Shown here: piece by piece, positions 2,858 through 7,026 of the stretch
Position numbering within the stretch: the first letter of the stretch is position 1
How the letters are laid out: the number at the start of each line of letters is the position of its first letter
Assembly: GCF_006345805.1 (NCBI RefSeq)
Contig: NW_021829000.1
Location: 1 to 7,026, forward strand
Source of the DNA: Octopus sinensis
Lineage: Eukaryota
Direction: 5' to 3'
DNA length: 7,026 nt
Translations under genes and position numbers: made by a program
Notes under the pieces: model-generated
Seen by the model: only the letters and a program-made list of their open reading frames with translations
Database searches by the model: none
What the model was told of the DNA's origin: nothing

Positions 2858-3262
2858 ATGAGTGTGTAGGTTTGCGCGGGTAAGTACAGATATTCATTAG
2901 AAAAGACTAAAATGTTAATTCGTAAAAAAAAAGGTCTAAGCATTTGTCGTACTCGCTACGATCATAAACAAAAGAACTGAACTTATGTCGACCTGCAGAC
3001 ATATGCCAAAGTACTTTTGCACAAATGTCAAAATGAAGTCTATTGATGCATGATGAAAAGCAGTTATACGTCACACGTTGATGACTTTTCGAACGCAAAT
3101 AAACAAAAGACTTTAAATCTTTACTAATCATTTCTCTTCAATCCGATGGTGTGTGCTCTTTCGATCAAAACGTCGTGATTCGGCTGATTACATACTCCGG
3201 TTTACTTGACTCTGACACACAAAAAGAAACACACACACACAGGCATTTCCACGAATAGGCAC

Positions 3263-3303
3263 ATATATATATATATACATATAACATACATGTTTGAGTT
3301 GCC

Positions 3304-3337
<34 letters not shown>

Positions 3338-3393
3338 TATATATATATGTAATATATATGTATAATATATATATTATATATATATATATATGT

Positions 3394-3439
<46 letters not shown>

Positions 3440-3500
3440 GTATATATATATATAATATATATATATTATTATATATATATATATAGATATATATATATTA
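3263..3500. repeat. Imperfect (TA)n microsatellite
   Basis: Long TA run with a short interruption at ~3290-3303. Confidence 0.95.
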
Positions 3501-3675
3501 CGAAAAGCATTTGTTTTTAAATTATTTGGTTCTAAAGAACACAGCTGTATTGTTTTTGTTGTTGTTTGCCTTTCGGTTTTATGCTAGTTTTATGCAATGT
3601 AGTATTAGTTCTATTCAGTTTGTTTGGAACAACAATGAAGAGCCGTAAGATCACACATATATACACCCGTGCATG

Positions 3676-3920
3676 CACACCACCAACAACACACACGTAT
3701 ACACACATATACAGACACACAACACACACATACACACACACATATATATATATATATATGTATATCCATATATATATACGTATATATATATACATATATA
3801 TATGTGTATATATATGTAAATATATATATATATATACATATGTATATATACATGTATATATATGTATATATAGAGCATGTATATATATATATGTATATAT
3901 ATGCATATATATATATATTG

Positions 3921-3955
<35 letters not shown>

Positions 3956-4091
3956 AATATATATGTGATATATATATATGTATATATATATATATATGTA
4001 TATATAGTATATATATATATGTATATATCATATATAAAACGAGAGAATAAGAGAGAGAGAGAAACAGAGATACAAAGAGATAAGAGAGAGA
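3676..4091. repeat. Compound microsatellite: (CA)n, then (TA)n/TATG, then (GA)n
   Basis: CA-rich ~3676-3741, TA-rich ~3742-4036, GA-rich ~4040-4091; it accounts for the spurious Y/I/H/T-rich ORFs. Confidence 0.93.
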
Positions 4092-4739
4092 GCGTGAAAG
4101 ACGTGCCACATGTGTGTATGTTACTTCTCTGTCTTCATGTATACATACATGTACACATATTTTCCTTTTGTTCAAGAAATTGCCTAACACTGTTCTGGTT
4201 TAACAAGAGTCGCGCGAATGATCATTGACATTTTCACAAAACATTTGTGGTAGGTCTTAACGGAGAGGTGATTGCGATGAGGAATAAAATGGAAGATATA
4301 ACATGTAAATAGAGAGAGCGAATGAGAGACAGTAGGAGCGAAAGTGCGTGGGTGAGAGAGAACATATAGGAGAGTTCGTAGTTTGCTGGAATTAATTAAA
4401 TCGATTGTATATTTACGACAATTAATTAAATCTTAATTCAATATATTGTAGTTGTTGTTGGATGATTGAATAGAAACAAACAAAAACAAATTAACAAATT
4501 TGCAGACTTCGACACTTAATTGTTATTTCACGTTTATTATTACCTGAATAAAGTTGAGGTTTCAGGTTATTCCATCAAATAAACTTACATTCAAACACGT
4601 ACACATTTACACATACATACCTGTGTATATACATTCACAAACATGGCAGGAATACACATGCATAGACGCATAGAAAGCTTTCTAGACATGTTTCTGAACT
4701 CAAGAAGCTATCTAGATATGTCTATCTGCGTGAATGTGC

Positions 4740-4803
4740 CTGTGTATGTGTGTATATCTCACTCTCTCTCCACGTGTGTGTATTAGCGTGCTGTGCATGT
4801 ATG

Positions 4804-4835
<32 letters not shown>
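4740..4835. repeat. Mixed TG/CT/TA simple repeat
   Basis: Low-complexity dinucleotide runs ending in (TA)n. Confidence 0.75.
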
Positions 4836-4840
<5 letters not shown>

Positions 4841-5085
4841 CATGAACACGCACAGATACGAATGTATAAACACAACATATAAGGACAAACACAATTATAT
4901 AGATAAGCATGTATATGCGTGTATATTCAAATAAACACGTTCATATATATGTGTTTGTGGAATATACATACCTTTCATGTTCTGCTATATGAATGATGTA
5001 TATATTATATAACAAGTATGCATCTTAACTCATTCATCATGCAATATATAAATAATTAAGTATTTAACAAACTACATTAATTACA

Positions 5086-5174
5086 TGTATATATGTATAT
5101 ATATATGTGTGTGTGTGTGTGTGTTTTGTATAATATCTATATATATATATATATATATATATATAGATATATAT
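5086..5174. repeat. Compound (TA)n-(GT)n-(TA)n microsatellite
   Basis: Directly visible. Confidence 0.9.
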
Positions 5175-5666
5175 TTGTTTGATGTGTGTGCTTGTATTGT
5201 GTATATAATAGGTTGCAGTTGTTTTTAATTATTACGTAATTATTTCTATAATGATAAGCCATTAACAAAGAGCTCAATTAGATTAGAAGCGAAAACCAGG
5301 AAACGGTATTTTTTTTTACAGAAAATTAATTTTCATGTTAAAGTGAACATGTAATATACTCCGTGTCTTCTGCAATGGTCTGAGAAACTTACAGACAAAT
5401 GCTGTATTCTTCGGTGTTAGCTCAAGGTGGGTTGTCAGATAGTTGTATTGTGTATATACACGGGATATACAATAGTTATTGGATTTGTAAAACATGCCTC
5501 TTGTGAGCTAGAATTTCTGAAATTCTATTAATAATGGAACGTGATATTAACTTATGGAAACGTCGTTATATGATAAGGAATAAATTCTGTCAATTTTTAC
5601 GAATGTATTTCTTCTGTGCGTAGTGATTAGCAAGGGACTTAATGAAAGTGATATAAATGCGACTCA

Positions 5667-5714
5667 TATATATATATATATATTATATATATATTATATA
5701 TATATATATATATA
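5667..5714. repeat. (TA)n microsatellite
   Basis: Directly visible. Confidence 0.95.
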
Positions 5715-5715
5715 T

Positions 5716-6090
5716 TAGATGAGTGTATTTTTACACTTGTCAACAATTAACACGGAAAAATACTAATAGTTACCAGGGCAGCAGCAAAAATCTCACAAGT
5801 AAAGGTGTTGTAACTCCTTGTTTATAAAGGTAGAAACTCGTGTTTACTTTGAATATTTTGAATAATATGAATAAAAAATGGAGTTAAGGCAGGTGTAAAC
5901 AAGTGATTTTTACTTCCGACACATGTTTCGAAAATTTCCACTGATACTATTCAAAAATAAATGGTATAAACAATGCAATCTTCTCTTCGGGAAAGTGAAA
6001 AAAAAGAAACTCGTCAACACGACATTTTAGCAAAAAAATGATTTGTATAGCGATAGACAGAACGCTATTAATATTGTTTAAAAAAAACGT
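5716..6090 (-). mobile_element. Putative hammerhead-bearing repeat unit (Penelope-like terminal repeat or non-LTR retrozyme-like) between TA arrays
   Basis: A ~375-bp structured segment bounded by TA runs (5667-5714 and ~6091-6099) that contains the minus-strand hammerhead motif. Boundaries are inferred. Confidence 0.4.
5912..5996 (-). ncRNA. Type-I hammerhead ribozyme motif (core U4->C) with palindromic minimal helix III
   Basis: Minus strand reads ACTTTC-CCGAAGA-GAAGATTGCATTG...CAGTGGAAATTTTC-GAAA-C-ATGT-GTC-GGAAGT. Stem I is ACTTTC/GGAAGT (5 WC + 1 G·U), the core is CCGAAGA versus CTGANGA, helix II is GAAGATT/AATTTTC extended by CATTG/CAGTG, and GAAAC-ATGT-GUC places the predicted cut between 5918 and 5917. 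Confidence 0.75.
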
Positions 6091-6543
6091 TATATATATA
6101 ACGTCAGAAGTAGCTAACAGAAAGAGTAGGGATATTAATAGTGAATGTTAAATATAAAAGAAATTAAAGTTTAAATTATTATAATGATAGAGACTACTTA
6201 TATGCACTAAATGTATGTTTTTGCCAATGCTTACATCTGTATGCTCGCTCTGTAACCGTTTTTCTAGAGTGTTTTTTTTGAAATAATAATGAAAAATAGC
6301 TCAGATTGCAGAGAAGAGACAGAATTACTTGCCTTTGTCCTTTGTCATATGGTATCGAAATTGAGAGGATCAACCATTCTAAATGAAATTGTTCATTGTG
6401 CTCTTTTAAATCCCAAATCAGTTTGCTGAGACCGGTACTATTCCGTTTATTTTTCTATCCCTAAATGTTGAGTAATGGATAGAAATTCTTTTAGATAACT
6501 CTAACGATGTGCTTCCAATGTAAAATCGTACTTATTACGAGTA

Positions 6544-6976
6544 CTGATTATACACTGGTATATAGAATTTTTAATCTTAGAGTTACTTGACATAATTTAA
6601 TTCTATTGGAATTGACTTCAGATACAATAAACTTGTTATTAATATTTCTAGGGTTGGATGGTATTAGCTAAATTAATGTTAGTATTAGTAATGTATTAAT
6701 AATTAACAGTTTGTTATTTGAGAAGATATAATTTGCAAGAGATTTTTTGTGTTTGAAAAACCTATCCTAACCTTATGTGAATTAATTATAGAGTGATATC
6801 TAGAATATTATATCTTCTCATAATAACAAACTGTTAAATATCAATTTAGCTAATACCATCCAACCCTCTAGAAATATTAATAACAAGGTTATTGTATCTG
6901 AAGTCAATTCCAACAGAATTAAATTTATGTCAAGTAACTCTAAGATTAAAAATTCTATATACCAGTGTATAATCAG
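6544..6976. repeat. Long near-perfect inverted repeat (foldback/MITE-like or inverted duplication); arms 6544-6732 and 6807-6976
   Basis: CTGATTATACACTGGTATATAGAATTTTTAATCTTAGAGTTACTTGAC... is reverse-complemented at ...GTCAAGTAACTCTAAGATTAAAAATTCTATATACCAGTGTATAATCAG. There are few substitutions, small indels, a ~23-nt extra segment in the left arm, and a 74-bp spacer. Confidence 0.93.
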
Positions 6977-7026
6977 GGGACACCAGCATCGTGTTTTCAA
7001 GCAATGCTAGGGGGACAAACACAGAC
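6976..7026 (-). mobile_element. Fragment of the same SINE family in reverse orientation, continuing past the window end
   Basis: Reverse complement GTCTGTGTTTGTCCCCCTAGCATTGCTTGAAAACACGATGCTGGTGTCCCC matches ~1471-1528 (GTCCCCTAGCATTGCTTGACAACCGATGCTGGTGT...CCCC) with a ~9-nt deletion. Confidence 0.88.

Follow-up and report, generated by a model that had tools for sequence, protein, structure and literature searches.

The window, a stretch of 7,026 nucleotides from Octopus sinensis (positions 1 to 7,026 of contig NW_021829000.1), carries on its minus strand a feature that is almost certainly the hammerhead of a Penelope-like element. As a ribozyme it belongs to the pseudo-LTR of an autonomous element of this type, not to a retrozyme. 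In its core a C takes the place of U4 (U4C), a substitution with most likely a single origin, in the master lineage of the family. For the hammerhead of the intact elements of this lineage we favour, with moderate confidence, the reading of a weakened, dimer-dependent self-cleaving ribozyme that is still under structural selection. The single copy in the window, which has no ORF and is accompanied by no second motif on the contig, is probably inert.

The hammerhead motif and its conservation

The motif consists of the following parts, numbered as in the window.

5912..5996, minus strand: type-I hammerhead motif, from stem I to stem I, by sequence, fold and covariation in 20 family members
5991..5996, minus strand: 5' strand of stem I, ACUUUC, extended by the U residues 6002-5998 past a bulged C
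5984..5990, minus strand: core C3-A9, CCGAAGA; position 4 is window position 5989, C for U, a lineage-wide state
5930..5983, minus strand: long helix II, 54 nt (55 in most copies), G10.1-C11.1 first
5919..5929, minus strand: GAAA (5929-5926) and the self-complementary helix III ACAUGUGU (5926-5919), a predicted dimer helix
5920..5925, minus strand: C-AUGU-G, followed by U5919 and C5918, by sequence
5917..5918, minus strand: predicted cleavage site after C17 (5918) of GUC, from the hammerhead consensus; genomic 5' ends show no peak here
5912..5917, minus strand: 3' strand of stem I, GGAAGU (GAAAGU in 36 of 36 other copies)

All elements of a hammerhead that the sequence-only reading had placed in order on the minus strand, from 5996 to 5912, are found on inspection. 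The residues C3, G5, A6, G8, A9, G12, A13, A14, the A15.1-U16.1 pair and H17 are all present, and three helices surround the core, with stem I open-ended and the pairing backed by covariation, as in type-I hammerheads; the U4 of the CUGA turn is absent, and a C is found at 5989. A motif descriptor, drafted after the motif had been seen, gives one match in the window and none in 2000 dinucleotide shuffles. The proposed search against Rfam returned no hammerhead match in the window at E≤10, and canonical CUGA copies at three loci were likewise without a match, so that Rfam probably misses these hammerheads because of their long helix II. A covariance model gives the window copy 83 bits, a score to which the window copy itself contributed as one of the sequences from which the model was built.

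The folding energy of the window motif is ordinary (z -1.3). Its helix II is an irregular hairpin in the minimum free energy (MFE) fold, and the monomer hammerhead conformation lies 3.1 kcal/mol above the MFE. The palindrome relevant to dimerization is ACAUGUGU, which runs from A15.1 to U16.1 and includes two G·U pairs. The palindrome ACATGT put forward earlier is one base off this register and is not the dimer palindrome, since A15.1-U16.1 cannot form in it; the two registers have the same predicted energy (-6.0). Three G·U pairs had been taken as a clue to the strand. The minus strand is correct, but it is the ORF of the element that settles this, whatever the pairs indicate, and one of the three involves G5916, which is private to the window copy and is A in all 36 other copies compared. 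Such private letters may be sequence errors. The doubt is based on the many gap openings of this copy against other copies (22-31 per 1.09 kb, compared with 1-10 for L009) and on its location in a short, unplaced contig of 7 kb; among the matches listed for public runs, the private letters occur in no contig piece.

The fold is conserved well beyond this copy. Across 20 hand-picked copies, whose families reach down to about 60% identity in protein, a 23-pair structure has 89.6% of its cells paired and double changes at 11 of its 23 pairs, compared with 38–50% paired in slid controls; these sequences are related, the window copy served as the model for the structure, and the shuffle counts should not be read as probabilities. 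RNAalifold recovers only helix II (10 pairs, four of them with double changes). Invariant in the 20 members are C3, G5, A6, G8, A9, G12 and U16.1, and the helix III variants CAUGUG, CAUAUG, CACGUG and CAUG are each self-complementary. In about 15 copies among the matches listed, such as L175 and L171, the helix III loop is 2 nt shorter (CGUG or CAUG) and still self-complementary. At one locus, C20:4975937, the two strands of stem I are joined and the entire core is deleted.

With a gapped pattern, at least 8,335 long-helix-II hammerheads were found in the genome, 7,807 of them CUGA and 528 CCGA, while controls gave none. The stretch between A9 and G12 measures 53–58 nt in these motifs, which number more than 8,000 and make up a hammerhead class missed by Rfam and by short-spacer descriptors. 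In sister families (L130-L141) the ORFs measure about 900 aa and canonical long-helix-II hammerheads run into the thousands; one young family predominates among the first 100 matches listed. The predicted membership of a retroelement family is borne out, with paralogues that include canonical CUGA copies and with covariation in stems I and II.

The host element

The motif lies in a truncated copy of a larger element, for which L128, a complete paralogue in the same genome, serves as reference.

5716..6806, minus strand: copy of a Penelope-like element of the Hydra clade, truncated at its 5' end and sharing 92% identity with the 3' 1.09 kb of full-length L128
5716-6502, minus strand: counterpart of the pseudo-LTR (783 bp in L128), by alignment to L128
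6194..6806, minus strand: remains, with frameshifts, of the part of the ORF for the C-terminal GIY-YIG endonuclease; last frame 6454-6194, stop 6196-6194
5716..5864, minus strand: 3' tail of about 150 nt
6837..6976, plus strand: beginning of an inverted 5' piece, as is usual in these elements; it runs into another repeat and the contig end before any second hammerhead
5667..5715, no strand: (TA)n tract next to the 3' end; the family inserts into such tracts

L128 comprises a pseudo-LTR (2077-2859), an intact ORF of 775 aa (2910-5237, with its ATG at 2910), a second pseudo-LTR (4940-5722) and an inverted 5' piece. The pseudo-LTRs are direct repeats of 783 bp, 99.6–99.8% identical, with one hammerhead each, and a third hammerhead is located in the inverted 5' piece. 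The predicted structure of the L128 protein (pLDDT 80) has telomerase reverse transcriptases as its top nine PDB matches, with E-values of 2e-9 to 5e-8. The single ORF with a telomerase-like reverse transcriptase is thus present in the paralogue, the window holding the 3' end alone. The C-terminal GIY-YIG endonuclease is assigned by motif only, with conserved Y, YxG, R, H, E and N. A Pfam search gave no match, and a PDB sequence search and ARAGORN gave nothing relevant. Homologues of the family protein include two named ones from Argonauta.

Pseudo-LTRs from partial tandems, an inverted 5'-truncated piece, an optional 3' tail and a hammerhead in the pseudo-LTR are all found. Compared with the marks of the Hydra clade as described in PMC8557442, DKT is present, as are CxxC and CxH flanking E and N, and CCHH is absent; RWL occupies the aligned position at which the Hydra clade has RWK. 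The CxCX5C linker is missing in three of three proteins of the genome and is found, with x5 or x6, in all nine aligned homologues spanning the region. The family is therefore filed as Hydra-like, as a derived branch. The cysteine linker has been proposed as a mediator of microsatellite targeting (PMC8557442), yet the proteins of L128 (2910-5237), L131 and L132 do without it and the family inserts into (TA)n.

In the window copy, homology extends from 5716, next to the (TA)n tract, to 6806 and continues in the inverted piece to 6976; the contig ends at 7026. For the region 5716-6100 the 2.7-Gb genome yields 3,744 candidate matches, of which 40 were scored, at 91–93% identity. The ends of family copies gather at two sharp positions, differing by the optional tail of about 150 nt: 53 of 108 copy ends include the tail, 49 stop just short of it and the remaining six fell elsewhere. 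A (TA)5 or longer tract adjoins 48 of the 53 tailed and 41 of the 49 tail-less ends, against a background of 1286 in 18000 random 36-mers from the same loci (7%). A non-LTR retrozyme, the other host that had been proposed beside a Penelope-like terminal repeat, was rejected: the motif follows an ORF remnant, and the copies are dispersed or form inverted pairs rather than short non-coding tandem monomers. The Penelope-like half of that proposal holds, given the ORF and pseudo-LTRs of L128.

The window contains other repeats as well. Copies of a dispersed repeat at 1262-1680, 2109-2181 and 6980-7022, which we take to resemble a SINE, share 73 nt at 92% identity between 1601 and 2109 and, in inverted orientation, 44 nt with 91% identity where the contig ends. 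A 105-nt inverted repeat (919-1023 and 1109-1213, 73% complementary) is possibly a decayed miniature transposon. Two GC-richer stretches, 1843-2110 and 2410-2620, presumably resemble fragments of a mariner-type transposase and a LINE 3' end.

The U4C substitution and later changes

The commonest core of the window family is CCGAAGA. Exact 27-mer counts (n=710) comprise 385 CCGAAGA, 227 CTGAGGA, 83 CTGAAGA and 6 CCAAAGA, the last being the CpG mirror change; U4 accounts for 310 of the 710 family matches. The 83 against 6 mirror changes rules against CpG decay as the origin of CTGAAGA, although two U4 rows within a C4 group resemble reversions. In the 36 nearest other copies, position 4 is C in 29, U in 6 and A in 1. 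By eye, 85 of the first 100 CCGA motifs listed belong to the window lineage and the other 15 represent scattered changes within different families or subfamilies; applied to the 528 C4 motifs, this share gives a CCGA lineage of about 450 copies. Contigs of all eight public runs examined, under four organism codes, contain both the C4 and the U4 state, so U4C is no assembly artefact.

A tree of 52 copies, calculated from 866 columns with both core columns removed, shows a ladder of U4A7, U4G7 and C4. The sample is not random: copies were chosen for their similarity to the window, for their core pattern and for the similarity of their protein to that of a C4 copy. All 30 C4 copies fall inside one clade of 33 rows (support 94/77, not starred) that is nested among U4 copies and also contains two U4 rows and one unclassified row. 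The C/U label requires three changes on this tree, a number as low as which was reached by no shuffle, and four on a shorter tree of 89 rows. Mean pairwise divergence is 5.1% for U4A7 (n=19, without three rows that are outgroup or reversions), 2.9% for U4G7 (n=22), 2.3% for early C4 (n=23, without the window copy) and 1.5% for late C4 (n=16). With a C4 copy as the query, an open frame of at least 770 aa is retained by three of the 59 matches listed (at least 82% identity), all of them late C4, and the intact young elements have C4 in both pseudo-LTRs. Being a lineage trait, U4C stays in the family consensus, which keeps the CCGA state and does not return to the CTGAAGA (CUGA) core that had been expected of it.

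Between early and late C4 copies six changes were fixed in the 87-nt motif, none of them in the invariant core. Two lie in distal helix II and jointly lengthen its end hairpin. C11.1 became U, giving a G·U pair, helix III became a perfect palindrome and GUC became GUA; the perfect palindrome, GUA and U11.1 are also found in CUGA sister families. In the remaining change the outer pair of stem I was lost, and the fold regains it by slippage. Four of five substitutions after U4C are tolerated by the structure, a weak test with P = 0.04 to 0.13 depending on the weighting. Change was faster in the motif than in the remaining UTR (6/87 vs 6/247, P = 0.09), a pattern that also fits relaxation, and at such divergence the sparing of the 10 core letters has no statistical power. 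In L128 the double-hammerhead fold matches the best predicted cofold (-44.6); it lies 1.4–3.6 kcal/mol above the best cofold in three other copies and 7.2 kcal/mol above it in the window copy. Taken together, the pattern after U4C leans towards continued structural selection on the motif, short of proof.

Cleavage, dimerization and known elements

The weakened, dimer-dependent ribozyme could operate as follows, by a mechanism drawn from the dimer action described in PMC4209133 and PMC6765202. A transcript through both pseudo-LTRs would carry two hammerhead motifs, the palindromic helix III segments of which would pair, so that each core could cut the GUH site of its partner. The two cuts would release a unit of 2.86 kb (L128 2656 to 5518). 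U4C probably lowers the rate of cleavage rather than abolishing cutting; a viroid U4C variant is reported, in PMC3088659 citing its ref. 30, to be much less active in vitro and to keep infectivity. Copies end downstream of the cut (5519), at L128 5570 and 5722, at distances of about 50 and 200 nt. The template for insertion would thus have to be uncut or re-ligated RNA, with reverse transcription crossing the site, and a weaker ribozyme could be tolerated and may cost little. Such a template agrees with the account in PMC11167929 of an anole element, in which ribozyme mutants had no effect on insertion in vitro and cleavage required the protein.

Genomic 5' ends at the cut site were considered as fossils of cleaved RNA and rejected. 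Six loci (five independent) among 14 copies lacking U16.1 start at the cut site, but control truncations spread over -15 to +1 with no peak; the 22 truncated family copies of the control, for which 30 of 120 matches were examined by script, include 1, 1, 2 and 1 at matches of 0–3 nt and 4 and 3 at 11–12 nt. The core segment has 120 matches, against 42 for a downstream segment of the same design, an excess which may reflect stalling of reverse transcriptase at helix II or microhomology at the junction. As a separate observation, one public run (X4, guessed to be RNA, contigs only) reaches a summed depth of 10,000–24,000 at L128:5400-5530, over the hammerhead only and of U4 type, the ORF having about 14; this is possibly an abundant host transcript containing a short copy. 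A second run of the same study (X6) has a depth of only about 440 over the hammerhead.

A less probable, though serious, reading is that U4C abolished, or nearly destroyed, useful catalysis. The lineage would nevertheless have made its copies, about 450 in number, and is the only branch of the family in which intact elements were found. Cleavage would then be dispensable, and the dimer fold and long helix II, if kept at all, would serve otherwise, in protein binding or RNA dimerization. U4C may indeed leave no activity, as the hammerheads of Penelope-like elements are described as already slow (PMC4209133) and, in a co-transcriptional screen of a different hammerhead, activity was low when the CUGA turn carried a single mutation (PMC9901934). 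The 3' ends downstream of the cut, the 5' ends without an excess at it and the faster change of the motif after U4C are all in line with such dispensability, as are the normal insertion of the anole ribozyme mutants in vitro, with no reads ending at the site (PMC11167929), and the Naiad elements, described as thriving without the motif (PMC8557442). Against it, the dimer register was improved by the changes after U4C, and CUGA is kept in 7,807 of the 8,335 long-helix-II motifs, across families about 30% apart in protein, which points to long selection on the core.

Rescue in trans appears improbable. In that case C4 motifs would be poor enzymes and good substrates, and U4 transcripts would cut them by way of the helix III and stem I that both have in common. 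The 3' strand of stem I and helix III are nearly identical in the two classes, at least 310 U4 copies exist in the same family, and in the double-hammerhead dimer described in PMC4209133 one core cuts the site of its partner; yet the U4 copies of the family are older, no full ORF was found in the ones examined, and dimers in cis should be favoured. The original suggestion that U4C is a decay, perhaps a silencing, private to the window copy of a working CUGA family can hardly be upheld: CUGA is the ancestral state and the genome-wide majority, and sporadic CCGA does occur in other families and subfamilies (15 of the first 100 listed), but C4 is found in 29 of the 36 nearest copies, in 385 of 710 genome-wide and in both pseudo-LTRs of the intact, youngest elements.

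Hammerheads in Penelope-like elements, in the Hydra clade and in an octopus Hydra family are already published (PMC8557442). As described there, Hydra-clade elements, including Hydra-1_Obim from octopus, have in common with the window family a single ORF for a reverse transcriptase with C-terminal GIY-YIG endonuclease, less than 3 kb per unit; the DKT, CxxC-E and N-CxH motifs; (TA)n targets; a type-I hammerhead on the sense strand, in the 3' region, whose helix III is short and palindromic; and a partial tandem and inverted structure. The differences are equally clear. All 26 Hydra rows of File S2 of that paper have CUGA, and their loop II does not exceed 10 nt, whereas the window family has 53–58 nt and one CCGA lineage; two plant elements with loops II of about 30 nt are marked there as deviating. 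The Hydra clade has a three-cysteine linker, which the window family is without, and the tail measures 30–40 bp in the Penelope-like elements described, compared with about 150 nt here. Hydra-1_Obim itself, with another hammerhead and another N-terminus, represents a different family.

The metazoan Penelope-like hammerheads of PMC4209133 resemble those of the window family in being of type I, in occurring in both pseudo-LTRs, in a 7-bp proximal helix II, and in a palindromic helix III with predicted dimer action. The viroid hammerhead with the same core substitution, weaker in vitro and sufficient in vivo, is a variant of one plant replicon (via PMC3088659), whereas here U4C is fixed in hundreds of retrotransposon copies, in combination with a helix III of the dimer type. 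Animal non-LTR retrozymes (bioRxiv 10.64898/2026.07.22.740005) also contain type-I hammerheads related to those of pseudo-LTRs; as described, they are short non-coding tandem repeats, whereas copies of the window family are dispersed, 5'-truncated and inverted, with the motif after an ORF for reverse transcriptase and endonuclease. In the literature searched, with subscription papers mostly outside its scope, no report was found of the window family, its long helix II or a retrotransposon lineage with U4C.

What the hammerhead does in Penelope-like elements is described as unclear (PMC8557442). The window family offers a dated natural allele series in one master lineage, from CUGAAGA through CUGAGGA and CCGAAGA to the later changes, together with intact young elements, so that the need for the ribozyme can be tested with natural sequences. 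If cleavage should turn out to be dispensable, the C4 lineage would constitute natural evidence that Penelope-like retrotransposition needs no ribozyme cleavage.
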